IMG/VR virus record: IMGVR_UViG_3300020581_000009
Span: 1 to 22,610 of that record
Reading direction: 5' to 3' (one strand)
Length of the DNA stretch: 22,610 nt
From: a virus
Taxonomy: Duplodnaviria > Heunggongvirae > Uroviricota > Caudoviricetes
The notes under the pieces: generated by a model
Told to the model about the DNA's origin: nothing
The model's input: the letters and a program-made list of their open reading frames with translations, nothing else
Databases searched by the model: none
Shown: one piece after another, positions 5,789 to 22,485 of the stretch
Layout of the letters: every line of letters starts with the position of its first letter
Position numbering within the stretch: the stretch's first letter is position 1
Translations under genes and position numbers: made by a program

Positions 5789-6787
5789 TCATGTCGCCGT
5801 CGCCGGCTCCGTTGTGGCCATAGACGCCACATATTGCGTAATCAGACTGACATTCCACAGAGTATGCGGTATGTCATTTTCGTCTATCAGAAGAATGCAC
5901 TTGTCACAATCTTGGATATTTACTGTCCTGCCGTTAATGGCCGGTATTTTCGTATCTAATTCCTCATTGTACGAGGTCAGTTTTCCGAAGTTCTTTAACT
6001 CGCTAAGCAGCCTTGCAACCCTAGCCTCTGCTATCGTACTATACTGACCGAGATCGATAGTCTCTTTTTCTATGTGTATTCTTGCTCGGAACCATCCACC
6101 GTGTGGATATACGCCTTGATATCCGGTCCTACTTCTTCTGGTGGCGCTCCTAGAATTGTGGCTATTCTCACTCTTTGTGGCGTCTCGTAGATTCAGCCAC
6201 CTATTGTCATTTCTAACCCTATTGATGTGATCTATCTCAAATTCAGGCCAATCTCCCGTCATATAAAACCAAGCCAGGATATGCTCTAGGTACTTTTTGT
6301 AGTCGATCCCTATGCTGCGATAGCCCTTGCCGTGAGTGGTGCCGGCTCTATCGCCTATATTAGCCACCGAAGAGGCCACCCTCCACGTAAACCAACCCGT
6401 GTCAGGCTCGTAGTAAAGAAGCTCCTTCAGCCGACCCAGCGTCAGGGCCGTGGACTTGATATCTTCTGGATCCTTATCATGAACCAGAATATTGGAGACC
6501 CTATTATCGGTCTTATTCCCATTCAGGTACTTTATGCGTCCTTTGGGCCACTCGCCATTGACATAAAGCAGCGCCAGTAGACCAGAGTTGTAATTGACCG
6601 CGTCTACCGAGATCATGACGTAGCCAAGTGAACTTATCCTGCCGGCACCAACCTTACCGTGCTTACGATCTTCCGAGGTCCACGTTCTGGCCTGCTGGCG
6701 TCTCGTAAAGATGCCGAGTTCGGCATCGTAGTGAAACAGTTCCTTCAACCTATCTTGTGTCGGCCTTGGCTTCGTATTCGTATCCAT
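5789..6787 (-). CDS. Free-standing homing endonuclease: two HNH-type domains plus an AP2-like domain (332 aa)
   Basis: Two copies of L..RLKEL..Y....G.FT.R; the second has an intact HILAW...EIDHINRVRNDNRWLNLR; followed by GYQGVY...WFRARI...DLGQY..IAEA (AP2-like). Confidence 0.9.
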   Translation of the reverse strand: MDTNTKPRPTQDRLKELFHYDAELGIFTRRQQARTWTSEDRKHGKVGAGRISSLGYVMISVDAVNYNSGLLALLYVNGEWPKGRIKYLNGNKTDNRVSNILVHDKDPEDIKSTALTLGRLKELLYYEPDTGWFTWRVASSVANIGDRAGTTHGKGYRSIGIDYKKYLEHILAWFYMTGDWPEFEIDHINRVRNDNRWLNLRDATKSENSHNSRSATRRSRTGYQGVYPHGGWFRARIHIEKETIDLGQYSTIAEARVARLLSELKNFGKLTSYNEELDTKIPAINGRTVNIQDCDKCILLIDENDIPHTLWNVSLITQYVASMATTEPATAT

Positions 6788-6852: not shown

Positions 6853-7779
6853 TTAGCTGGTCGGTGCGGAGCCCCAGATGCTACGGGGATCGTTGTAATT
6901 AAAGCTATATCTCTCCCATCCCTTCACCATGAGATTGTCCGTGGTAAAATCGACCTGCATGTCGATCTCGAACGGCTCGCGCTCCAGGTAGAGGAGGCCC
7001 GGCTGGTCGGTCTTGAGGTACCACGGAAATGCGGAGGTGAAGAACACGTCCTTCACGTACTCGCTGATGCCGCCGGCAACAGTTGGGAGGACGTTGATGT
7101 CGTTGTTCGCCGTACCTGGGCGAAGCTCTGTCCTGAGAAGGCGGAGGGCGGTCGGCTCGTTGTTCGGGTGAATAACGAGCGTCTTTCCCGTGGCCATCAT
7201 GCGGAGGCCGGCGTTGTCGTAGAAGCCGGTCTGGATCGAGATCATCCCGTTCAGCAGGGATGCTTCGTTCAGGTCTACGTCTGTCGTAGGACGGTTTGCC
7301 CACGTAGTCGGACCGGATCCGCCAGGAGGCAGTGGGTGGGCAGTGCTCAGGAGAGCAACGCCGTCGCCGCCGACTGTCGTGTCGTAGGTCGTGCTGTTGT
7401 TGAACACGGCCGCAGCGTAGATTTCCTTGGTCTGGGCGAAAGAACGCTGGAGACCAAGGTTTGACGGGCGGAACTGCGCCTTGTAGAGGTTGTCCGCGAT
7501 CGTGTTGCGGGTGATAGCGTAACCCAAACCGATTCCAGTGTGAAGCTGGTTGTAGACCCACGCCTCACCGGAGGAGTTGTCGAAGATCGTCTGACCACCG
7601 TCCGACTTAAGCTGGGCGAGTGGCAGGAACCGCATGGAAGCAGTACGCTCCTGCGCCATCTCGGACTTGCCTTGGTCGAACAGCTTTGGCCAGATCGACG
7701 GCCACTGCTTGTATTCACCTGTGACACCACGGAGACCCGGCAGCAGGAGGTCCCGAATGGCTGCGACGTTAATTGCCAT
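6853..7779 (-). CDS. Major capsid protein (HK97 fold, Mu gpT-like family; 308 aa)
   Basis: LLLPGLRGV, GYAITRNTIADNLY, GGDGVALLSTAHPL, DLNEASL, DFTTDNLMVKGWERYSF..DPRSIWGS motifs; position downstream of scaffold and cement genes. Confidence 0.9.
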   Translation of the reverse strand: MAINVAAIRDLLLPGLRGVTGEYKQWPSIWPKLFDQGKSEMAQERTASMRFLPLAQLKSDGGQTIFDNSSGEAWVYNQLHTGIGLGYAITRNTIADNLYKAQFRPSNLGLQRSFAQTKEIYAAAVFNNSTTYDTTVGGDGVALLSTAHPLPPGGSGPTTWANRPTTDVDLNEASLLNGMISIQTGFYDNAGLRMMATGKTLVIHPNNEPTALRLLRTELRPGTANNDINVLPTVAGGISEYVKDVFFTSAFPWYLKTDQPGLLYLEREPFEIDMQVDFTTDNLMVKGWERYSFNYNDPRSIWGSAPTS

Positions 7780-8427: not shown

Positions 8428-8610
8428 GTCACCGCACGCAGCGGATCGGCCTGAAATCGGTACTGCCGAAGCAGCTATGTTTTCTGGGTGGCAAGTGTCG
8501 CGGCGCGCGACTTGCGGTCCATCCGGCTAAGCCGGGGAATCCGACCATAGTTCTCTCAGCGCGAGAGCCCTTGCGGTCCTTCAACATCGCGGCTTGCGAC
8601 ATTGGCTATT
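8428..8610 (-). ncRNA. Candidate structured 5' leader of the cement-capsid operon
   Basis: Two GGACCGCAAG repeats (8511-8520, 8570-8579), each followed by a hairpin with a GCGCY loop; CCGGC-tta-GCCGG hairpin; C(UUCG)G tetraloop hairpin GCTGC-TTCG-GCAGT. Confidence 0.5.
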
Positions 8611-8615
8611 GTCGA

Positions 8616-8644
8616 ATGTTAACTTTCTAATTACCCCCAAGCAA
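8616..8644 (-). promoter_or_regulatory. Putative sigma70 promoter for the capsid operon
   Basis: TTGCTT-N17-TAACAT in an AT-rich patch about 190 nt upstream of the cement gene. Confidence 0.5.
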
Positions 8645-8689
8645 CAGTTATTTTTAATACGGTATACCAGATAGTTATCGCGAGACCAT

Positions 8690-9058
8690 AGTTCCCCCCT
8701 TTCTGCCTTCAGTCTGGACTTAACCTAGACTGAAGCCCCTAGTGAGGGGGAGACGGGAGACAACTTTCCCATCCGCATACTTGGTGCCCTTCGCCGGTAA
8801 ACCGGACAAGTGCCAGTAGGATTTTTTCGGCTCCTACCCATGGCATCCCTCATCTAGCGGGACACCATGCTTCAACCGTTCCAGGGGGTTGCCCTGTCTG
8901 AAGGCCCAGGTCGCAAGGGGAGAGCGTTGCCTGGAATTGTTTTGGTTCGGGCAAATTGCCAGCGGCCCGCAACACCGTATGCACCTATTGACCTATAGGC
9001 ACGGGCGGTGGGGCATAACCGGCTCAGTCGGACGGGTGTCCGGGCTAGGGGACTTTTA
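8690..9058 (-). ncRNA. 3' part of a candidate large structured RNA interrupted by the outer IS
   Basis: No ORF-track entry. About nine back-to-back stems, e.g. 8707-8735, 8751-8774, 8839-8869, 8879-8936, 8984-8999, 9029-9042. Several need G.U pairs available only on the minus strand. Confidence 0.5.
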
Positions 9059-9071
9059 GGGAACTATGCAC

Positions 9072-9100
9072 TTGACATAGTTATAAATCGGGTGCATATT
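9072..9100 (+). promoter_or_regulatory. Transposase promoter overlapping the left IR of the outer IS
   Basis: TTGACA (inside the IR)-N17-CATATT. The inner IS has the same layout: TTGACA 10760-10765, N17, TGTATT 10783-10788. Confidence 0.65.
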
Positions 9101-9125
9101 GGCGGCCATAGAGAGGTTGCCCGCC

Positions 9126-10031
9126 ATGAATGTAGATCTGACAGACCCGATTTTTCACGATGAAAACAAGGCTCGCGAGCACCTTGAGGCGCAGCGCTGG
9201 CCCGATGGCCCGTTCTGCCCGCATTGCGGCGAGGTCGATAACATTTGCCGATTACATGGCAAGTCCCACCGCCCCGGCCTGTTCCAGTGCAACTCATGCC
9301 TTCAGGCATTTACGGTTATGGTCGGCTCGGTTTTCGAGTCGTCGCATATCCCGCTGACCAAGTGGGTACTGGCCTTTCACCTGATGGCCGCGAGCAAGAA
9401 GGGTATGAGTGCCCTACAGCTACAGCGGATGCTCGGCCTTGGCTCCTACCGGTCGGCTTGGTTCATGTGCCACCGTATCCGTGAGGCCATGAAGCCGGCC
9501 AAGCCAAGCCCGTTGGGTGGCCCTAAGAAGGTTGTCGAGGCAGACGAGACCTTCATCGGCGGCAAAGCCAAGAACCGCGCCTACGCCAAGAAGCCCCCAA
9601 AGAAAGAGGCGGTCTTTGCGTTGGTCGAGCGGGACGGCGAAAGCCGCTCATTCCATGTCGCCAACGTGAAGGCAAAGACCTTGCGCGAAGCCATCGTCAA
9701 GACGGCAGACCGTAAGTCATTCCTGATGACCGACGAATCGCCGTCCTACGAAACGGTTGGCGCAGAGTTTGCCCTTCACGCCACGGTCAACCATTCGCAG
9801 AATGAATACGTGCGCGCCGACTGGCACACGAACACGGTGGAAAGCCGTTTCGCTCTGATGAAGCGCGCCGTCTATGGGACGCACCATTCAGTCAGTCAGG
9901 CCCATCTGCACCGCTATTTAGTCGAATGGGACTACAAGTGGAACACCCGCAAGATGAAGGATGGGGAACGTGCCGCGCTTGCCGTCTATGGTGCCGGTGG
10001 CAAGCGTCTCACGTACCGCAATCCTAACTGA
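9126..10031 (+). CDS. IS1595-family transposase (Zn ribbon + ISXO2-like DDE domain)
   Basis: CPHC...CNSC Zn ribbon, EADETFIGG, LMTDES, HTNTVESRF, HLHRYL.EWDYKWN. ATG 9126 follows a GAGAGG RBS; the track's start at 9099 is probably too early. Confidence 0.95.
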   Translation: MNVDLTDPIFHDENKAREHLEAQRWPDGPFCPHCGEVDNICRLHGKSHRPGLFQCNSCLQAFTVMVGSVFESSHIPLTKWVLAFHLMAASKKGMSALQLQRMLGLGSYRSAWFMCHRIREAMKPAKPSPLGGPKKVVEADETFIGGKAKNRAYAKKPPKKEAVFALVERDGESRSFHVANVKAKTLREAIVKTADRKSFLMTDESPSYETVGAEFALHATVNHSQNEYVRADWHTNTVESRFALMKRAVYGTHHSVSQAHLHRYLVEWDYKWNTRKMKDGERAALAVYGAGGKRLTYRNPN

Positions 10032-10099
10032 GCCCAAGACAAATCAAGCAGAAGGCAAAGCGCTTTCTGCGGTGGAGAAAACGCAAGGGTCGGGCATGA
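10028..10099 (+). CDS. Conserved basic micro-ORF (23 aa, CTG start) coupled to the transposase stop
   Basis: LSPRQIKQKAKRFLRWRKRKGRA; a homolog at 11756..11845 is conserved through synonymous substitutions. Confidence 0.5.
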   Translation: MSPRQIKQKAKRFLRWRKRKGRA

Positions 10100-10112
10100 C
10101 GCTCGGCCCTTG
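10084..10112 (+). terminator. Hairpin/terminator after the transposase-micro-ORF unit
   Basis: CAAGGGTCGGGC-ATGAC-GCTCGGCCCTTG, a 12-bp stem with two G.U pairs on the + strand, followed by TTTCGTT. Confidence 0.65.
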
Positions 10113-10157
10113 TTTCGTTATGCTAAGTCTATAAGTTGGCTTCGGAGTTGCATAAAA

Positions 10158-10472
10158 ATGACGATCAAGACTTATGTAGCGCTCGATGATGGGACGACAG
10201 TTTTGGTCGAAACCATCGAGCACGAAGGAGACCTCTGGCTTGTGCCAAAATGGATCGCCACGTCATTCCCAAACATGCACAAGCCAGCCCGAATGATTCG
10301 GATGCCGAAAGATCGGCTCCAGGACCTCGGCCATGATTTTCTCGCAAGCGGGATTCATGCACATAAACTAGACGGTCAAGTGTCCAAAGTTTTGTTGGAC
10401 GTGGCCAACCCGTTGCAATCAGACCAGCCGTTCGACGTTCTAGAGGCTCCGGAGTTATTGATTCGTCGATGA
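10158..10472 (+). CDS. IS passenger, hypothetical protein (104 aa)
   Basis: GGAG RBS before ATG 10158; globular-looking sequence (ETIEHEGDLWLVPKW...KPARMIR). Confidence 0.65.
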   Translation: MTIKTYVALDDGTTVLVETIEHEGDLWLVPKWIATSFPNMHKPARMIRMPKDRLQDLGHDFLASGIHAHKLDGQVSKVLLDVANPLQSDQPFDVLEAPELLIRR

Positions 10473-10809
10473 ATTGTTGATTTCGAATCACTCTGTGTAC
10501 CATTTCTTCCTTCCTCAATTCCGAAAACCTCTAATTGCCCATCCCAAAGCCGAACCGAACGCCAGCACAAGCACGGGAGGGATCAGGGCAATTTTGATGG
10601 CTGTTTGAATGGCGATCTTTCTAGAGCCGAGAAGTTCAAGTTGTAAGTCAGATATAATCGTGCCCTGCGGCGGGTCAGGGGGCGGTAGGCTTAAAACCGC
10701 TACCGTACCAACCGCACCAATCCAAAGTACGGAGAGGACAATCCACCCCAATTATATCGTTGACATCACAAGCTCTATATGCTGTATTGAGGCCATCACA
10801 CAGGGATCG

Positions 10810-11763
10810 ATGGTCATGGACACGTTTTCAGCCCCGCATTTCCACAATGACGAAGCTGCCAGAGCCTATCTGGAAGCCCTGCGTTGGCCCGATGGTCCGG
10901 TCTGCCCGCATTGTGGCTCGGTCAATCACGCCTATGTGATTAATCCTGCCGGCACCTATCGCTGCGCAGAAAAGGAATGCCGGGGGAACTTCTCGGTCAC
11001 AATGAATTCTCCCATGGAGCGCAGCCATATCGCTCTGCACAAGTGGGTCCAAGCATTCCATCTAATGGCGTCCAGCAAGAAAGGCGTCTCAGCCCACCAA
11101 TTGCACCGGACTCTGGAAATCACGTATCGCTCGGCATGGTTCATGGCGCACCGCATTCGCGAGTGTATGCGATCGGGCGGTCTCGCCCCGATGGGTGGCG
11201 ATGGCCAGATCGTTGAGGCCGATGAAACATATTATGGCCCGGTCGATAACCCGCGTACCGAAACGACCATCGGTCGGCCGTTCACGAAGCGTGGCAAAAC
11301 CGGTCCAGCCAATAAGCGCCCGATCCTCGCGCTGGTCGAGCGCGGCGGCAAGGTTCGCACGTTCCATGTGCCGGTTGCCGATCAGAAAACGGTCGAGAAG
11401 ATCGTCACGGAAAACATCGCTCGCGAGTCACGGCTGCACACCGATGAAAGCCGCCTCTATTTCAACGCGGCCGATCATTTTGCCGCGCACAAGACCGTGA
11501 AGCACACCGCGAAGGAATACGCGCGGCGCGAAGACGGAGAAAACATCCACTGCAATTCTGCGGAAGGTTACTTCTCGATTTTCAAGCGCGGCATGAAGGG
11601 CATCTATCAGCACTGCGACGAAAAGCATTTACACAGATATTTGTCGGAATTCGATTTCCGCTACAATCACCGAGTCCGGCTCGGATACGACGATGGGGAA
11701 CGTGCAGCCATGGCGGTCAAGAACGCGACCGGCAAGCGGCTGACGTACCGGCTCACTGACTAA
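10810..11763 (+). CDS. IS1595-family transposase (second, divergent copy)
   Basis: CPHC...CAEKEC, EADETYYG, LHTDES, HCNSAEGYFSIFKRG, HLHRYLSEFDFRYN. True start is ATG 10810 or 10816, because the track's 10609 start lies outside the IR. Confidence 0.95.
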   Translation: MVMDTFSAPHFHNDEAARAYLEALRWPDGPVCPHCGSVNHAYVINPAGTYRCAEKECRGNFSVTMNSPMERSHIALHKWVQAFHLMASSKKGVSAHQLHRTLEITYRSAWFMAHRIRECMRSGGLAPMGGDGQIVEADETYYGPVDNPRTETTIGRPFTKRGKTGPANKRPILALVERGGKVRTFHVPVADQKTVEKIVTENIARESRLHTDESRLYFNAADHFAAHKTVKHTAKEYARREDGENIHCNSAEGYFSIFKRGMKGIYQHCDEKHLHRYLSEFDFRYNHRVRLGYDDGERAAMAVKNATGKRLTYRLTD

Positions 11764-11845
11764 GCCTGTTTTCAGGCATAAGGCCGCGCGGTTTCTGCGC
11801 TGGCGCAAGAAACTCCCCAAGAAGAAACGCAAGGGCCGAGCATGA
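11756..11845 (+). CDS. Conserved basic micro-ORF (29 aa, CTG start)
   Basis: LTKPVFRHKAARFLRWRKKLPKKKRKGRA; same register as 10028..10099, with an in-frame 18-nt indel. Confidence 0.5.
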   Translation: MTKPVFRHKAARFLRWRKKLPKKKRKGRA

Positions 11846-11859
11846 CGCTCGGCCCTTGC
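11829..11859 (+). terminator. Hairpin/terminator, homolog of 10084-10112
   Basis: GCAAGGGCCGAGC-ATGAC-GCTCGGCCCTTGC, a perfect 13-bp stem. Confidence 0.65.
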
Positions 11860-11898
11860 TTCGCTATCCTGGCGGTGCCAACCAACTAGGAGCGAGTC

Positions 11899-12105
11899 AT
11901 GGCTAAACAGATTGCGCCCGCCTACGCCCTTTCTCTCTGCGTCGTTCTCGCTCTTCATAAAACTGATCCCAAATTTCTTGCACTCTTACGGTCCACCGTG
12001 GCGGATTTCCAGAAGACTCAGCCCAAGGACGGGATAACATGGGAGACTCTTGAGCTTTTTTTGCGCGCCCTATACGACTCTGAGATTTTTGTAAAATCGT
12101 CTTAG
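11899..12105 (+). CDS. IS passenger, hypothetical protein (68 aa)
   Basis: AGGAG RBS; same slot as 10158..10472; overlapped antisense by a 72-aa ORF. Confidence 0.5.
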   Translation: MAKQIAPAYALSLCVVLALHKTDPKFLALLRSTVADFQKTQPKDGITWETLELFLRALYDSEIFVKSS

Positions 12106-12133
12106 TTTCTTTTGTTGCCATTGGTTTTCCCCG

Positions 12134-12556
12134 TTAATCCGCTACCTTGGTCCACCGAACTTCAATAGACTTGATTTTTAAATCGTCGGCCGGATTGAGC
12201 AGAGTCAGGCCGGTAGTGTCGAACTCTTTTTGCTCTTTTTGCCAAGCAATTGCGGGAACGATGTACCTCGCTGCGTTATATGCGATCACGGTTGCCTGAA
12301 AGTGGCACCCTTTGTCGCCAAGTGGTGCATGTCCCCAATCACAGTCTTTCGGTTTGATACCAATGTTAACTTGGTCGAGGCTGACTTTGTATTTCGCGGA
12401 ATACCAGATGGAATCCATCCATGTGTCGCCGGGGCCTAGCCAAACAGTAGCCACTAAGACCGCGACAAAAATCCAGCCCCCGTACAAGCCGAGCGTACCA
12501 ATAAATGCAAAAAACGCCCTCACGTTGGCTCCAAACTCATCCAGTCGTGCATTCAC
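12134..12556 (-). CDS. IS passenger, membrane-anchored protein (140 aa)
   Basis: GTG start overlaps the stop of the 2-TM gene; N-terminal hydrophobic segment followed by a soluble domain with a CDWGH...KGC Cys pair. Confidence 0.7.
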   Translation of the reverse strand: MNARLDEFGANVRAFFAFIGTLGLYGGWIFVAVLVATVWLGPGDTWMDSIWYSAKYKVSLDQVNIGIKPKDCDWGHAPLGDKGCHFQATVIAYNAARYIVPAIAWQKEQKEFDTTGLTLLNPADDLKIKSIEVRWTKVAD

Positions 12557-12855
12557 CGAAAACCTCTAAGCGCCCACCCCAATGCCGATCCTATCATCAA
12601 CAATAGGACAGGGGGGATAAGAGCAATCTCGGTAGCGGTTTGAATGGCTCGCTGTCGATTAGCGGCGGCTTCTATGACCCATGGTGCGTCTGGTAACGAA
12701 TCAGACTGCTGTTGAGCGCTTGGTTGCGGATTAAATTTCGCCCAAGGGTCAGCCGCCGGAAAATTCAATGTTGCCACGGCAATCACCGCACCGATCCATA
12801 ACACAGAAAGGACAAGCCACAGTCGGAGAAATCCGCGTGCGATTCGCAATGCCAT
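12553..12855 (-). CDS. Two-TM membrane protein (100 aa), intact
   Basis: ARGFLRLWLVLSVLWIGAV...AIQTATEIALIPPVLLLMIGSALGWALRGFR; two hydrophobic helices around a Pro/Gln-rich loop. Confidence 0.85.
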   Translation of the reverse strand: MALRIARGFLRLWLVLSVLWIGAVIAVATLNFPAADPWAKFNPQPSAQQQSDSLPDAPWVIEAAANRQRAIQTATEIALIPPVLLLMIGSALGWALRGFR

Positions 12856-12864
12856 CGCTGGTCC

Positions 12865-13026
12865 CTATCCCTTTTTACTCTTGGGACTCTTGACCGGCTT
12901 TCCTCTAGGCTTGCCGAGCTTCATTTCGGCCTGCGGCTTGGGCGGCATCTTGAACGCCGCTCGCAATGCCGCAGCCGCGCGCCGTTCGGTTTCTTCTCTT
13001 GTGAATTGGTCGAGGGGCTTGGCCAT
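12865..13026 (-). CDS. Basic peptide (53 aa), not in the ORF track
   Basis: MAKPLDQFTREETERRAAAALRAAFKMPPKPQAEMKLGKPRGKPVKSPKSKKG; homologous to 13874..14029. Confidence 0.8.
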   Translation of the reverse strand: MAKPLDQFTREETERRAAAALRAAFKMPPKPQAEMKLGKPRGKPVKSPKSKKG

Positions 13027-13639
13027 GGCTGCACCACTAAGCGAGGAGGATGAATACGATCAACAGTTCAGAAACATTTGCTTCAATATGGGAATTGCTC
13101 TTGTAGAATGGCAGCGTCTTGAAGACCAGCATTACGGGCTTTTCCGACATTTGACTGGCATCCAGCGACAAGACCTTGCTTCAATTGTGTACCATAGCAC
13201 GGAGAGCTTTGACGCGCGACGTGTAATGGTGGGTCACCTAGCGCGAGCTTTCATCGACCAATTGAACGACAAACAGCAGGCGAAAGCTCGTAGGCAAATA
13301 GCTGCTATTGATAAGGGGCTGGCAGATGCAAGCAAAAATCGCAATAAAATAGCCCACCATGCAATGGAATATAAAATCTCTTCCATGAAAGAGAACGATG
13401 ACGGCAGCATTACAATCGAATACGGGCCTCCTAGGCTGCAGCAATCATCATCCAATATATTGAGCCGGATAGAGGGGCGCGGTCCGGACCAGAAGGGGCA
13501 CGACCTGGGGGTAACCGAACTACAGACATACAGAGATGAATTTAAAAAGGTGCAGGCGCAAATTATCGCCTTCAATCACTGGCTGGCTTTAGTGACGCCT
13601 CCGCAGCCGCTGCAATCAGGCGCTCCACAATCGACATAG
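13025..13639 (+). CDS. HEPN-motif protein (204 aa), candidate RNase toxin
   Basis: GAGGGG RBS before ATG 13025; helical sequence with EWQRLE and an R-x4-H motif (RNKIAH). Confidence 0.65.
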   Translation: MAAPLSEEDEYDQQFRNICFNMGIALVEWQRLEDQHYGLFRHLTGIQRQDLASIVYHSTESFDARRVMVGHLARAFIDQLNDKQQAKARRQIAAIDKGLADASKNRNKIAHHAMEYKISSMKENDDGSITIEYGPPRLQQSSSNILSRIEGRGPDQKGHDLGVTELQTYRDEFKKVQAQIIAFNHWLALVTPPQPLQSGAPQST

Positions 13640-13799
13640 CCCCCCATGGGCCGCCAATCCAAACGCGGCCATAGAAATCCGCCTCGTCCATCAACCTCTG
13701 AACCATCCTGCCAATAGCAGCGTCGTCGGCCAGCAGATCGGCCCATTTCTGGTCAGGCTGGACTACTCCTGAATTCTGTAGCGTCGGCCTGTCGGTCAC
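13572..13799 (-). CDS. Small ORF next to the right IR of the inner IS (75 aa)
   Basis: AGGAG then GTG; same slot as 14616..14807; overlaps the HEPN gene 3' end by 68 nt. Confidence 0.4.
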   Translation of the reverse strand: MTDRPTLQNSGVVQPDQKWADLLADDAAIGRMVQRLMDEADFYGRVWIGGPWGAMSIVERLIAAAAEASLKPASD

Positions 13800-13873
13800 A
13801 TACTACTCCTAGAGCTTGTGATGTCAACGATATAATTGGGCAATCCACAATCTGAGAAATCCGCGAGCGAACC

Positions 13874-14029
13874 TCACGGGTTGGCCTTGCGTGGCTCGGG
13901 ACTCTTCTTCTTTTTCCCGGTAGGCTTATGCGGCTTTGGCGGCGTGTTCAGCGCAACGCGCAAGGCGGCGTTGGCGCGGCGTTTGGTCTCTTCGGTGCTG
14001 TAGAAGTCGGTCGGTTTGTTTTTGCTCAT
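13874..14029 (-). CDS. Basic peptide (51 aa), not in the ORF track
   Basis: MSKNKPTDFYSTEETKRRANAALRVALNTPPKPHKPTGKKKKSPEPRKANP; its TGA overlaps the GTG of the split 2-TM gene. Confidence 0.8.
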   Translation of the reverse strand: MSKNKPTDFYSTEETKRRANAALRVALNTPPKPHKPTGKKKKSPEPRKANP

Positions 14030-14044
14030 GCAGCGGATGATAGC

Positions 14045-14662
14045 ATGACGGTGGTATCAAAAAAAGCGCGAAAGGAAGCTCTGGCTCGCGCCAAGGAGCG
14101 CCTAAATGCCCGGAGCTTCGGGAATGATTCGTGGCAGGTGATACTGCAATACACCGGAGATTCCTCGAATCTTCAAACATCTGATAGAGCAACCGCGCTT
14201 GTACTGGGTGCCATCTTAGAGCAAGGGCTTGAACTTGCGATTCTTTCGCATTGCGTTCTCGGGTGGAACACGCCGGAATCGGAGTCGGAACAGAGAAAGC
14301 TATTTGGTGGAGGTGAAGACGCCCCTATAAATTTCGCCGTAAAAATTAGGCTTGCCTATGCGCTCGGCGTATATGGGCCCAACACTAGAGATGATTTGGA
14401 CCTGATGAGGCATATCCGCAACCTTTTTGCCCACGATAGGGGCCACCTGACTTTCAATGATGAAATAGCATCAAAACTTTGTGTCCAAATAAAATGGATC
14501 GATGCGTTTCCGTGGGGAGGCGTTACTGGAAATGCGCCAGCGTCTCCCCGAGATCAGTACGTAGAAACAGTCAAGCACTTTTTCCCATTTCTAACGGTGG
14601 GAGTTGGCAGGCCAATCAAATACCTGGATTCTCCTTTTGCTCTTTCTGTAATGTATGCCTAG
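14045..14662 (+). CDS. MtlR-like HEPN-superfamily protein (205 aa)
   Basis: SDRATALVLGAILEQGL...LF...NFAVKIRLAYALGV...DLDLMRHIRNLFAHD...LTFND, with R-x4-H (RNLFAH). Start at ATG 14045 is inferred. Confidence 0.7.
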   Translation: MTVVSKKARKEALARAKERLNARSFGNDSWQVILQYTGDSSNLQTSDRATALVLGAILEQGLELAILSHCVLGWNTPESESEQRKLFGGGEDAPINFAVKIRLAYALGVYGPNTRDDLDLMRHIRNLFAHDRGHLTFNDEIASKLCVQIKWIDAFPWGGVTGNAPASPRDQYVETVKHFFPFLTVGVGRPIKYLDSPFALSVMYA

Positions 14663-14807
14663 CCCTCCACATCGCTTCAAAAGCAACCAACGCGCACACT
14701 CCTGGGTCGTCGGTACATCCGATTGCAAGGAGAGCCCGTTCGCCGGCCTCAATCATTTCGTCCGTGACTTCGATTTCAGCAGAACGTGTGTCGGGTGCTT
14801 GTTCCAT
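14616..14807 (-). CDS. Small ORF next to the right IR of the outer IS (63 aa)
   Basis: GGGAG RBS; IEVTDEMIEAG motif; overlaps the HEPN gene 3' end by 47 nt. Confidence 0.6.
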   Translation of the reverse strand: MEQAPDTRSAEIEVTDEMIEAGERALLAIGCTDDPGVCALVAFEAMWRARHTLQKEQKENPGI

Positions 14808-14956
14808 CGCTCCCTATAACACAAGTTATTCTACAAAGCAAATTCTCGCGAGTAATTAAGCTCCCGTATGGACCGGGAGTTAGGCCGATGGCAAGCCAAC
14901 AACTTGCAATCTAGGCCGATTTATAACTATGTCAAGTGCATAGTTCCCGACTTTTA

Positions 14957-15065
14957 CGTTGACGGAAACACAGAAATAAGGTATATGCCCATCAACGGTC
15001 CACACGTCCCCGATCAAGGTTTATGTGGATCAGCCCGGCAAGACACCACATCTTGGCCGGGCACC
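14957..15065 (-). ncRNA. 5' part of the candidate large structured RNA
   Basis: Stems 15033-15062, 14999-15029 and 14957-14997; the last two gain G.U pairs on the minus strand. Putative promoter CTTGAT-N16-TATAGT at 15099-15072. Confidence 0.45.
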
Positions 15066-15121
15066 TTTTTGACTATACGAACGAATCGAGAACATCAAGG
15101 CATTAATTCTATTAGGGATAC

Positions 15122-15310
15122 CTAATCGCACATAACGGATTGTGATGGCGTTTTTGTCTCGTTTCTAGCGTCTATCACAATCGCCCTGATGTATGCCGAA
15201 ACGGTTACCTTGTTTTCCTCGGCAGTGCGCTGTAGCCACTCAAACGTCATCGTATCTAGCCTTGATTGGATCAATCTTCTGTTGGACTTAGGGCTAGCCT
15301 TGAGTGGCAA
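15122..15310 (-). CDS. Ribbon-helix-helix (CopG/Arc-like) DNA-binding protein (62 aa)
   Basis: GAGGAG RBS with TTG start; LIQSRLD (strand), FEWLQRTAEE (helix), TVSAYIRAIV (helix). Confidence 0.7.
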   Translation of the reverse strand: MPLKASPKSNRRLIQSRLDTMTFEWLQRTAEENKVTVSAYIRAIVIDARNETKTPSQSVMCD

Positions 15311-20037: not shown

Positions 20038-22485
20038 TTACCTCTTTGAAACTCCAGCGGAAGGCTTGGGCTTTGCCTTTTCCAGCGCTATAGCGTGTTC
20101 ACGATCCAATTCGCCCTGATTCGCCTCGTGGGCGTGTCCAAGTGCGGTCGTCAATAGTTCATGGCGCCGATCATGTGCTTGCTGATTGGCGTCATGGGTG
20201 TGTCCCAGCCCCATTTTGATTGCATCGTGACGATTAGACAAGGCCTTCATCCTGAACTGGTGTACCCGATCAGCCTGCCGGTTCTGTTGATCGGCCTGGA
20301 GTGCTTGGCCCTTCTGCTGGGAATCCGAATTATGAATGACCATTTCCCTCGCCAATCCAAGGTGTGCAACCTGCTCCTCGGACTGAAGCTTCTGCGTCTG
20401 GTAGTCGAGAGTCTGTCCAGCCAGCGCAGTCTTGGCCTGTGCCTCAGTAGATTTTGTCTGGCTGTCCGCGAGTCTCGCCTGCGCCGTCAGAAGATCGGCC
20501 TGCGCACTCATTGCCTCTGGGTTAGGCGGTACGGTTCCAGGTTCCGGCGGCGGCTTGAAGTATGATTCCGCGTCATCAACACCGAGAACATGCATGGCGT
20601 GCAGATCGACCTTGTCTTGGTCGATGTTAGGATTACCCTGCTGAATCTGCTTCAAGGCAGAAGTTTTAAGATACCGCTCGGTCTGCGAAGCCGTGTTAGG
20701 ATCGGCCTTCGGAATCAACTCGCAGTCATTTAAGGCGGCAACGAACATCGCATTTCGTTTGTCGTCAGCTTGATCCTGCTGGACAACGATCGGACTCGAC
20801 CCGATTGCATCAGTCAGAGCCTTCAGAACTTTGCTCTTTTTATTGTGCCTCCACAGCGCAGATGGATCCTCGGTAAGAAGCTCTTTAAGCATTGAAAATT
20901 CCTGACCCTGAGCGGTATGAAGCCTCTTGTGCACTGCACTCATAAGCTTTGTGGCTTGCTCGATCAGGGCCAGGGTCGTTCCTACGGGGGCGTCTTGTTT
21001 ACCTTCACCGATCTGGAGTTCGGCCGTACCACCGACCCTCTGGGCGGTAGTCGTAATGCTGTCGATAAGCTGAATGAAAACCGCCGATGGATCCTTGTAC
21101 GGCAGCGGCATAACCGAGGCGCGTATATCATTTCCTACGGTATCAATCGGCATTCCTCCCCCAGGGGGAATCCTGAACTGATTCGTCAATTGCTTTGCGA
21201 GCGACTTCAGATACAAGAATCCAGGGAAGTTCGCGAACATACCGGCGTCAATCATCAGACGCCAAGCAGCCGTTACTGCCTTTGTGGCATTTCCGAGAAT
21301 GTTAAGGAGACCAATTCCATAGAAGCCCAATCCGGGAACGAAGATATACGCCACAATCCTGTTACGCGGCATACATAAATCGTCGTCTTCTCGCCAGTTA
21401 CGGCGGATTTCAAGGATTTTTCGAGCCTCTTTGTCGATAGTAACCTTGTACGGGAGCGGGAGTCCTGTGAGCTTTCCCTTGTCATCTTCATGCTCGAATC
21501 CAGGCACCTCGATTTCGCAGTAGCACTCGTAAAGCTCTCTGTCCTGGTCAGAAGGCTCAATGTAACTTGGTGGCGCAATACCCTGCACCTGATCGATCTT
21601 CTGGTCGATTGGATTCTTGAGCGCTGGCATCCCCTGTACTGGGAGATTCGTGTCTCGATAGGCGCCAAGCATCTGCATCCGCTTAAGGACGCTCGGCCGC
21701 ATCATGATTCGGTGGGTTACTCGTCCGGCGCCGTCAATGTCAGTCGCAGCATTCGAGACGATTAGATCCTTGGCATCAATGGAAGCCAGGACAGGCCTTC
21801 GCTTAATCGGGCAGTGATACCCCTTCTTGAAGGCTATACCGGAGAATCCCAGCATAAGAAGGAGCCTATCCGTGTCGGGATAGTATTCCTTCGCCACAGA
21901 CGTAAGGTAGTGGTTTAGATCCTTCTCAAGAGCCATCGCCAGCGTCGTGGCGAGTTCGTCCCCCTGTCCATCATTCTTGACCTTGACAGGACCATCGGCG
22001 GGGAGAAGTTCACCACGGGCATTGGCCTGGAACCTAAGGGTTGCCTCCAAGAGGAGAGGATGATCGACTGTCGAGACGCCCTCTGCTGGAGCCGCCCCGG
22101 TCGCAGCCGCGCCCCTTGGAGTCTTTATCTCCAGTCCAAGCAGCGAAATGCCGTTGCTCATGTTCTGGAGCCAAGCGCTTCGGCTTTGGTCGTCTTGCTC
22201 GATCCCGAGAAGGATACGCTCGGAAATCGTGCTTAACTCTGATTCGCTCAGAGACTCGGCTAGATTGTCCTCGAATTCGCTTTCCTTCCGCTCTGATTGC
22301 GGAGGCCCAACGGTAATCTGCACATCCCCGTCAGGGAGAGTAATCTGCGTGGTTCCAGTCGTCTCGTCGTACGACTGCGCAACGTCTCCGCCATCGGTGA
22401 TGACCGTCACATCGCCAGTGTCAACCGGCGACGGAGTATCATGGACTCGGTAACTGTTGGGGCTCAACGGGTAGATATTGGACAC
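20038..22485 (-). CDS. Portal protein with a long C-terminal coiled coil (815 aa)
   Basis: VDHPLLLEATLRFQA, YYPDTDRLL..LGFSG.AFKK, LGFYGIGLL.ILG, SAVHKRLH.AQ.QEF; size and position fit a podovirus-type portal. Confidence 0.9.
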   Translation of the reverse strand: MSNIYPLSPNSYRVHDTPSPVDTGDVTVITDGGDVAQSYDETTGTTQITLPDGDVQITVGPPQSERKESEFEDNLAESLSESELSTISERILLGIEQDDQSRSAWLQNMSNGISLLGLEIKTPRGAAATGAAPAEGVSTVDHPLLLEATLRFQANARGELLPADGPVKVKNDGQGDELATTLAMALEKDLNHYLTSVAKEYYPDTDRLLLMLGFSGIAFKKGYHCPIKRRPVLASIDAKDLIVSNAATDIDGAGRVTHRIMMRPSVLKRMQMLGAYRDTNLPVQGMPALKNPIDQKIDQVQGIAPPSYIEPSDQDRELYECYCEIEVPGFEHEDDKGKLTGLPLPYKVTIDKEARKILEIRRNWREDDDLCMPRNRIVAYIFVPGLGFYGIGLLNILGNATKAVTAAWRLMIDAGMFANFPGFLYLKSLAKQLTNQFRIPPGGGMPIDTVGNDIRASVMPLPYKDPSAVFIQLIDSITTTAQRVGGTAELQIGEGKQDAPVGTTLALIEQATKLMSAVHKRLHTAQGQEFSMLKELLTEDPSALWRHNKKSKVLKALTDAIGSSPIVVQQDQADDKRNAMFVAALNDCELIPKADPNTASQTERYLKTSALKQIQQGNPNIDQDKVDLHAMHVLGVDDAESYFKPPPEPGTVPPNPEAMSAQADLLTAQARLADSQTKSTEAQAKTALAGQTLDYQTQKLQSEEQVAHLGLAREMVIHNSDSQQKGQALQADQQNRQADRVHQFRMKALSNRHDAIKMGLGHTHDANQQAHDRRHELLTTALGHAHEANQGELDREHAIALEKAKPKPSAGVSKR

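Follow-up and report, generated by a model that had tools for sequence, protein, structure and literature searches.

Large structured RNAs encoded by phages are few, and their functions are open. GOLLD and ROOL are large 'ornate' RNAs of phages and prophages; both are Rfam families, and their structures have been described (PMC12286853). The putL and putR RNAs of phage HK022 mediate processive antitermination in cis (PMC9378689). Each unrelated example widens the set available for study.

The element considered here lies in a 22,610-nt stretch of DNA (the window) from an 86.6-kb phage record; all evidence comes from this one uncultured phage. An initial annotation had proposed that the tract encodes a large phage RNA, structured and non-coding, into which an insertion sequence (IS) has intruded; a covarying paralog in the same genome now supports that reading. 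The tract is very probably a new, previously undescribed structured RNA. At a probability of roughly 60%, we favor a two-copy, non-coding structured RNA of about 490 nt, each copy having its own promoter and being directed toward the downstream operon.

An interrupted copy and an intact one

Copy A, on the minus strand of the window, is divided by an IS1595-family element that holds a second, nested IS (Table 1). Both transposases carry DDE_Tnp_IS1595 and Zn_ribbon_IS1595 domains, and the array contains perfect inverted repeats of 33 nt and 31 nt. The outer element is bounded by the 33-nt pair (9059-9091 and 14916-14948) and an 8-bp target-site duplication; transposase domain, zinc ribbon, terminal inverted repeats, and duplication together place it in the IS1595 family. 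Repeats and duplication imply that excision joins 9058 to 14957, so that removal of the outer IS does unite the two halves of the tract, as annotated. The IS-free copy A (approximately 15070 to 14957, then 9058 to 8684) comprises about 490 nt of non-coding sequence. The insertion point is the linker between H3 and the CGGAC hairpin: the IS splits the copy after the third 5' hairpin rather than in mid-element, and the closed core of about 340 nt stays whole.

Table 1. Features of copy A and its surroundings (window coordinates)
Feature	Position	Strand	Remarks
Insertion of about 555 nt relative to closest relative L125, IS removed	8670-15121	-	From after the RHH stop (15122-15124) to before GGTATACC (8668-8661)
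Small RHH-like ORF upstream of element	15122-15310	-	Kept in L125; not part of element; RHH call by eye
Promoter-like TTGATG-N15-TATAGT	15072-15098	-	Just upstream of first hairpin of copy A; by eye
5' part of copy A	14957-15070	-	A-run, then H1, H2, H3; cut off from core by IS
H1 hairpin	15062-15033	-	Kept in copy B, 6 both-side changes
H2 hairpin	15029-14999	-	Kept in copy B, 2 both-side changes
H3 hairpin	14997-14957	-	Another hairpin in its place in copy B
Core of copy A	8684-9050	-	Consensus fold with copy B
Core helix: CGGAC hairpin	9042-9029	-
Core hairpin	9002-8981	-
Core helix CGGGC/GCCCG		-	Copy A core
Core helix CCAGG/CCUGG	8934-8906	-	With inner stem
Core helices	8896-8882; 8869-8839; 8838-8815; 8813-8787	-
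Core helices	8774-8751; 8749-8736; 8737-8705	-
Core closing helix	9023-9009 pairs with 8699-8684	-
3' end of copy A, GGGAACUAUGG...	8671-8696	-	10-mer terminus identical to outer IS ends; 19/26 match to IS inverted repeat
Capsid-operon leader	8428-8668	-	Own promoter-like TTGCUU-N17-UAACAU; common to relatives without element
Outer IS1595-family element	9059-14948	+	Interruption, not part of RNA; has cargo and nested IS
Nested second IS	10747-13840		Inside outer IS1595-family element
8-bp target-site duplication GACTTTTA	9051-9058 and 14949-14956		Direct repeat flanking outer IS

A second, unsplit copy (B) is present in the same record, at approximately 35407-35903 and in the opposite orientation, with no IS beside it. 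Identity between the two copies is 59% over their whole extent and rises to 73% in the core (over 285 nt); the pair furnishes an internal covariation control. The joined tract had been described as lacking a convincing open reading frame, and comparison of the copies agrees: no frame is common to both, each frame of the joined tract contains 2-10 stops, tblastx similarity is scattered across all six frames, and substitutions by codon position number 57/60/63, with no 3-base periodicity.

Known RNA families do not account for the tract. The Rfam 15 covariance models (including GOLLD, ROOL, OLE, HEARO, group I and II introns, RNase P, tmRNA, 6S, and riboswitches) gave no match at gathering threshold across the whole window, and at E <= 10 the copy A core and copy B drew only chance-level matches of 13-18 bits, far under threshold. 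ARAGORN found no tRNA or tmRNA in the window; all 28 tRNAs of the genome lie at 50.8-58.6 kb. These searches agree with the annotated absence of a tRNA, tmRNA, RNase P, or intron core.

The consensus fold of the two cores contains 88 pairs, of which 16 are changed on both sides, 10 are changed on one side via G.U, and none is broken; these counts are inflated, because the same two sequences, both belonging to one metagenomic phage genome, supply the covariation and were used to derive the structure. Slid controls yielded 0-2 both-side changes, with 33-51% of cells paired versus 100% observed, and none of 500 shuffles attained the observed core pairing values. Over the full length, the consensus energy is -146.8 kcal/mol versus -76.8 +/- 5.7 for column shuffles (z = -12.3), and 26 both-side changes are seen, where the null averages 13.4 and never exceeds 21. 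Paired columns differ at 30%, versus 43% for unpaired columns, and every pair survives although overall identity is 59%.

Each sequence by itself also folds better than its dinucleotide shuffles. For the 399-nt copy A core, z is -2.76 (minus strand) and -1.06 (plus strand); the corresponding values are -3.68 and -2.57 for IS-free copy A in full, and -5.58 and, on the reverse strand, -5.07 for copy B. Both copies therefore fold slightly better in the minus (copy A) orientation.

The fold shows 14-18 helices, where about a dozen had been counted. All four stems singled out earlier are real, and copy B keeps them in place by compensatory change or replacement: CAUGGUGUCCC/GGGAUGCCAUG (8869-8839) becomes CAUGAUGGCC/GGCCAUUAUG; GGAUGGGA/UCCCGUCU (8774-8751) becomes GGGCACA/UGUGCCU; UCCACAU/GUGUGGA becomes UCCGCAG/CUGCGA; and the H3 stem gives way to a different, longer hairpin. 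Folding energy, compensatory changes, and the absence of a coding signal all fit a structured non-coding RNA.

Strand, promoters, and transcript ends

The RNA strand is probably the minus strand. The consensus energy is -146.8 kcal/mol for minus but -124.5 kcal/mol for plus, with SCI values of 0.69 and 0.60, and co-directional genes lie downstream of both copies only in the minus (copy A) orientation. The initial annotation had taken G.U pairs to fix the strand. For the best-supported helices this holds, since strand-neutral helices with at least two compensatory pairs contain 10-12 G.U cells versus 0-1 A.C; a looser strand-neutral scan, however, gives 11 G.U versus 13 A.C, and H2 pairs better on the plus strand.

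The promoter placed before the first stem is weak. The hexamers upstream of copy A can be seen by eye, and TTGACT-N17-TAAAAA occupies the equivalent place in copy B, but neither set passed a consensus scan. A terminator scan found no intrinsic terminator at the minus-strand 3' end, so the folded RNA would be either the front of a transcript or excised from one. Each of the two downstream operons has promoter-like sequences of its own, situated after the element and ahead of the first gene, and a leader role is therefore not required. Relatives lacking the element express the same capsid operon.

The strongest alternative, albeit an unlikely one, places the functional RNA on the plus strand. 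It would be a discrete gene of about 490 nt, starting near CCAUAGUUCCCCC (approximately 8685 in A, 35903 in B), and would end at an intrinsic terminator formed by H1 and a U-tract (approximately 15033-15075 in A, 35446-35407 in B). RNA and terminator in copy B would then lie directly upstream of the leftward terS block, like a late leader RNA needing antitermination, and copy A would stand alone as an RNA gene, antisense to the late genes. Several features fit: a GC-rich 12-bp hairpin precedes ACCUUUUUGA in copy A and AUUUCUUUUUAC in copy B; A/B similarity starts and stops exactly at the proposed limits; H2 forms 8-9 bp with G.U, whereas the opposite strand has A.C mismatches or a bulge; TTGTGC-N17-CTATAT lies upstream in copy B, reading in from the other end; and the plus strand also beats its shuffles by a wide margin, with z of -7.1 in the consensus and of -2.6 and -5.1 when A and B are folded singly. 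However, the hairpin and U-tract were recognized by eye, and the terminator scan calls neither; copy A has no convincing promoter in that direction and no co-directional gene downstream; the G.U cells of the best-compensated helices turn into A.C mismatches; and consensus energy, SCI, and single-sequence z all favor the minus strand.

Insertion, location, and possible action

Neither the related phages and alphaproteobacterial genomes searched nor the motif scans yielded a homolog. The covariance model R1 recognized the two copies, at 316 and 305 bits, and nothing else. In about 87 related phages, the 4-6 kb around the capsid gene lacks such an element, and none of 31 related records searched whole contains it. 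In L125, the closest relative, BLAST and direct comparison show the capsid leader following immediately upon the RHH stop; copy A is thus an insertion of about 555 nt, with an imperfect GGTAT(A)CC repeat on its flanks. (The small RHH-like ORF had no Pfam match.) The element behaves as an insertable module, absent from close relatives.

An association with the head, packaging, or capsid, suggested at first, finds no support; the anti-defence role put forward alongside it stays a candidate. Copy B sits outside the head module, where a terS-led leftward block and a rightward AAA+ block diverge. The element's absence from the L125 head module further weakens a head or packaging role.

The conserved element end, GGGAACTATG, is identical to the terminal 10-mer of the IS inverted repeats and occurs four times in the whole genome; the shared 10-mer may bear on IS1595 target choice. 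A MITE or other non-autonomous IS derivative was considered and rejected: the IS-like 26-mer at one end points inward, the other end has about 14/28 matches, and the flanking repeat is imperfect.

Could the hairpins instead form in single-stranded DNA, as part of a replication origin, primosome-loading site, packaging site, or IS-related mobile remnant or target? Such a DNA-level element is improbable. At copy B, cumulative GC skew reaches a local minimum and gene direction switches, and a DUF2280 (terS-like) gene starts about 0.9 kb away; the insertion with its flanking repeats and IS-identical end could also be read this way. But the gene-direction switch explains the skew minimum equally well, copy A is not at a skew inflection, and no iterons or tandem repeats were seen in the region. 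The IS-like end is the wrong way round for a terminal inverted repeat, with no convincing match at the other end, and 80 loci, each reaching about 2 kb to either side of a related IS1595 transposase gene, contain nothing similar. Moreover, RNA typically shows just this kind of multi-branched fold, in which long-range helices close the structure and compensatory changes and G.U wobbles maintain it.

Least probable of all is a duplicated non-functional spacer, whose GC-rich palindromic sequence and two-sequence consensus bias would mimic structure: there are only two sequences, no homologs elsewhere, and some 13 apparent compensatory pairs even in column shuffles, but the energy (z = -12), the both-side changes beyond those of slid partners, the greater conservation of paired columns with no pair lost, and the exchange of whole hairpins for different hairpins at the same positions all argue against it.

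The structured RNA on the minus strand would then have the following architecture and history. Its 14-18 helices would form three 5' hairpins, then a domain of about 340 nt closed by pairing of its ends. Copy A would have entered the late region as a self-contained insertion of about 555 nt between the RHH-like gene and the capsid operon promoter and leader. A cargo-carrying IS1595 element would later have hit the linker after the third hairpin, cutting the promoter-like region and H1-H3 from an intact core. Each copy would be transcribed from its own promoter, in the direction of the operon downstream.

We infer that the element acts as RNA rather than single-stranded DNA, and likewise its strand, promoters, and function. 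Foremost among the candidate functions are a promoter-proximal leader, which would act in cis to alter elongation, termination, or mRNA stability, and a stable stand-alone RNA. A bolder proposal can be made only tentatively: that the element represents a new class of large structured phage RNA, either a stand-alone 'ornate' RNA like ROOL and GOLLD or a giant RNA-only transcription regulator that heads two operons and switches between two conserved alternative pairings, and that its 3' end, mimicking an IS1595 terminus, may have drawn the IS. Since one copy is naturally split and the other intact, comparison of copy B with split copy A would, if they are transcribed, give a direct handle on function.

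Comparison with known systems

Like the omega RNA of IS200/605, HEARO, and the bridge RNA of IS110, the element is a structured RNA; at its conserved end it meets the exact sequence of an IS terminus, and an IS of that type adjoins copy A. Unlike those guide and bridge RNAs, it matches neither HEARO nor any other Rfam family, copy B has no adjacent IS, and the 80 related transposase loci lack the element. IS1595 is a DDE transposase family that is not known to have an RNA component, and the target duplication here indicates an ordinary insertion.

Morons are autonomous promoter-gene-terminator insertions in phage late regions. Copy A likewise is a discrete insertion, which separates two conserved late genes and is lacking in the closest relative; one of its ends has a promoter-like sequence, and it includes a terminator-like hairpin. 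It differs in that its cargo is a structured non-coding RNA and in that the terminator-like hairpin reads opposite to the favored RNA strand.

The put RNAs, each about 70 nt, offer a possible parallel in arrangement: a phage genome has two structured copies that point in opposite directions, and each copy comes just after a promoter-like sequence and ahead of a co-directional operon. There is no terminator of its own, so that the element would form part of the operon transcript. They are short, with two stem-loops, whereas the element has about 490 nt and at least 14 helices and shows no sequence likeness to them. Nor were downstream terminators to override identified, and both operons have further promoter-like sequences after the element. 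A put-like function would thus be purely a matter of analogy.

GOLLD and ROOL differ from the element in sequence and structure, neither Rfam model matching even at E <= 10. The element occurs as two diverged copies in one genome only, and its locations (about 9/15 kb and 35.5 kb) are apart from the tRNA island. Nevertheless, it shares with them a length of about 500 nt, a multi-helix, non-coding, phage-encoded character, and the lack of a known protein partner or function; and the present phage, too, has a large tRNA island.

A structured element in two copies

The window covers the first 22.6 kb of a phage record in IMG/VR (86,610 bp), and its genes, mostly on the minus strand, form the head module. 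Two nested IS1595-family elements are located between 8602 and 15317. An 8-bp direct repeat, GACTTTTA, flanks the outer element (9059-14948), and therefore 9058 was joined to 14957 before insertion; the inverted repeats and the duplication agree with the junction proposed in the initial annotation.

Querying the phage's own genome with 8603-9058 detected a second, uninterrupted copy (copy B) at 35625-35900, in the opposite orientation and 73% identical. In a longer alignment, the likeness between copy B and the IS-split copy (copy A) starts at an A-run with a GC-rich hairpin (A, ~15070; B, ~35407) and ends at the motif GGGGGAACUAUGG (A, ~8684; B, ~35903). Each copy thus spans ~490 nt; identity is 59% over the full length and 73% within the 3′ core. 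Because the likeness extends upstream of the insertion point, copy A is truly split by the IS, as had been proposed. The insertion point is a linker after the third of three 5′ hairpins (H1, H2, and H3), and the ~340-nt core is unbroken. A covariance model of the 266-nt core, R1, has exactly two matches in this genome (316 and 305 bits).

The element is structured beyond chance. Relative to shuffles, single-sequence folding in the minus orientation gives z values of −2.8 for the A core, −3.7 for IS-free full-length A, and −5.5/−5.6 for B. In counts that rest on two sequences, from which the structure itself was derived, the two-core consensus fold comprises 18 helices with 88 pairs, of which 16 carry both-side changes and 10 carry a one-sided change through G.U, with no pair lost; 0/500 shuffles reached these values. 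When the 3′ partners were slid by 1-3 columns as a control, 33-51% of cells paired, with 0-2 both-side changes. The full-length consensus energy, likewise from these two sequences, is −146.8 kcal/mol, against −76.8 ± 5.7 in column-shuffled alignments (z = −12.3), and both-side changes number 26 (null mean 13.4, maximum 21). The copies differ at 30% of paired and 43% of unpaired columns. All four stems quoted in the initial annotation are present and conserved in place between the copies.

Positions of the element, its hairpins, and neighboring features
Feature	Position	Strand or direction	Remark
H1	15062-15033	minus	conserved; 6 both-side changes relative to copy B
H2	15029-14999	minus	conserved; 2 both-side changes relative to copy B
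H3	14997-14957	minus	different hairpin in the same place in B
Terminator-like hairpin and U-tract, copy A	15033-15075	plus	conflicts with favored strand
Terminator-like hairpin and U-tract, copy B	genome 35407-35446	minus	conflicts with favored strand
Alternative partners, copy A	distant 8905-8898; local 8737-8730		3′ strand 8712-8705, within 8705-8737
Alternative-pairing regions, copy B	genome 35850-35881 and 35687-35694
GGGAACTATG	8687-8696; 9059-9068; 14939-14948; genome 35890-35899
Outer IS inverted repeats	9059-9091 and 14916-14948		perfect, 33-nt
Inner IS inverted repeats	10747-10777 and 13810-13840		31-nt
Outer IS target duplication, GACTTTTA	9051-9058 and 14949-14956		8-bp direct repeat
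SU10-type portal gene	20038-22485		head module
Phage_capsid_4 major capsid gene	6853-7779		head module
GroES-like gene			head module
HNH endonuclease gene			head module
Left of copy B		leftward block	66-aa and 112-aa ORFs, DUF2280 terS-like gene, then terminase and portal
Right of copy B		rightward block	orphan 138-aa gene with TGCGAGGA leader, then AAA+ cassette

Coding potential, known families, and distribution

The element is neither coding nor a known RNA. Similarity between the copies lies in short pieces over all six frames, each with 2-10 stops, and substitutions by codon position (57/60/63) reveal no 3-base periodicity; the earlier remark that the tract holds no convincing ORF stands. 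It had also been reported that no known RNA was recognized, and the cmscan-type search bears this out: no Rfam 15 family matched the window at the gathering threshold, at E ≤ 10 both copies gave nothing above chance level, and ARAGORN found nothing in the window. Readings as RNase P, group I intron, DGR repeat, terminal repeat, or pRNA were dropped for lack of an Rfam match or because the features did not fit.

The searches recovered one uninterrupted paralog within this genome, copy B, and no homolog outside it. Specifically, no homolog was found when IMG/VR was scanned for exact matches to four conserved blocks (27 matches in one scan were all chance by BLAST); by BLAST in INPHARED phages; by nhmmer in the capsid-gene neighborhoods of 7 + 80 relatives; or by BLAST and R1 in 31 related phage records searched whole, of which 16 are at least 90% complete. 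A single motif scan of contigs from JGI metagenomes returned one chance match, in a eukaryote-like satellite. The IS transposase has its closest match (68%) in Methylocella-like MAGs, which is why alphaproteobacterial genomes were searched; BLAST of 401 genomes from the order of one such MAG, and R1 searches of 151 from its family, gave no homolog. The element was not found by nhmmer in 80 fetched loci at related IS1595 transposase genes (~2 kb each side), and megablast of the IS against plasmids gave no match.

The identical IS-bearing arrangement is found in a 109,962-bp contig of JGI 3300050821 and a 30,605-bp contig of ENA ERZ27253551, which suggests that the 5.9-kb nested IS is stable in this phage; the full contig exceeds the 86.6-kb IMG/VR record. 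Exact-protein look-ups found no IS-free allele; the recorded contigs are all IS-bearing.

The initial observation is confirmed and strengthened. The element matches no known family, and the case for it comes from two paralogs in one uncultured phage. The initial interpretation is supported in part, namely as to a large structured phage RNA.

The functional strand

The functional strand is probably the window minus strand (about 70%). The consensus energy is −146.8 there versus −124.5 on the other strand (SCI, 0.69 versus 0.60); both copies fold slightly better in the minus orientation; and only in this orientation do co-directional genes lie downstream of both. The claim that G.U pairs fix the strand holds for strand-neutral helices with at least two compensatory pairs (10-12 G.U versus 0-1 A.C cells) and fails in a looser scan (11 G.U versus 13 A.C).

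That looser count would fit a functional RNA on the plus strand instead, the less probable reading. On this strand a U-tract follows H1 in both copies (ACCUUUUUGA and AUUUCUUUUUAC), resembling an intrinsic terminator, and the A/B likeness ends exactly there. The plus strand also gives H2 the better pairing, and in copy B TTGTGC-N17-CTATAT reads in from the opposite end.

On the favored minus strand, promoter-like hexamers precede H1 in copy A (TTGATG-N15-TATAGT), where a promoter-like sequence had been reported before the first stem, and in copy B (TTGACT-N17-TAAAAA). Neither promoter-like nor terminator-like sites passed consensus scans.

Genomic setting and possible function

Relative to its closest relatives, copy A is an insertion, as judged from aligned junctions. 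In L123-L125, relatives with a 95% identical capsid protein, an RHH-like gene terminates in ...GATTAG, with CCGGTATACCGG and the leader of the capsid operon immediately after it. In this genome ~555 nt (15121 to 14957 plus 9058 to 8670) separate the TAG from TGGTATACCG, and this stretch contains promoter-like hexamers and the entire element. The capsid leader and its promoter-like TTGCUU-N17-UAACAU are common to relatives without the element, which is thus no fixed part of the head module. The suggested association with head or capsid is therefore not supported.

In L123-L125 the small RHH-looking ORF (…RLDTMTFEWLQRTAEENKVTVSAYIRAIVIDA…; 15122-15310, minus; 2930-3105 in L125) immediately precedes the leader of the capsid operon; it has no Pfam match, and a similar ORF occurs in another related record, L035. 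Immediately after the capsid gene, the slot at 5789-6787 holds HNH_3, HNH_2, Endonuclease_7, or none across four related records (L031, L033, L035, and L036), and is a variable insertion hot spot for homing-type endonuclease genes.

The genome contains the 10-mer GGGAACTATG four times, at both outer-IS termini and the conserved 3′ ends of both copies; GGGAACTATGG is the element end that bears it. With the 10-mer included, copy A matches the IS inverted repeat at 19/26 positions. This sharing could be chance (roughly 0.001-0.02 by our own estimate) or a putative transposase-binding look-alike that drew the IS there. This end does not qualify as a true terminal repeat of the element. Separately, the capsid-operon leader contains, at 8545-8553 (minus), GAGAACUAUGGUC (GAACTATGG, one occurrence), a 9-11-mer of the copy A 3′ end; it is missing from the leader in L125, the closest relative.

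Copy B sits where gene direction switches, and five related genomes lack homologs of its downstream gene. Cumulative GC skew reaches a local minimum at ~36 kb, coinciding with copy B and the leftward-to-rightward switch, and a deeper one at ~70 kb. Outside the window, 28 tRNA genes form an island at genome 50860-58621, all on the minus strand.

On the favored strand, the candidate promoters are positioned for transcription to begin at the base of H1. Since neither copy has a terminator after its closing helix, the RNA would make up the start of the transcript of the downstream operon, or be released from it by processing. Complements of the conserved loops match the genome no more than by chance, giving no trans-targets. 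Despite sequence change between the copies, the 3′ strand (CUGAAGGC in A, UUGUGGGC in B) can pair with either of two upstream strands in each, the local pairing being favored over the distant by 4.6 (A) and 8.4 (B) kcal/mol. This predicted pairing hints at a conserved alternative fold that may act as a switch.

What is shown is that the fold is conserved; its function would most plausibly be that of either a cis-acting leader or a stable stand-alone RNA. The former would resemble the put RNAs of HK022, which like this element are present as two oppositely oriented copies (PMC9378689); the latter would resemble ROOL and GOLLD, which are likewise phage-borne (PMC12286853).
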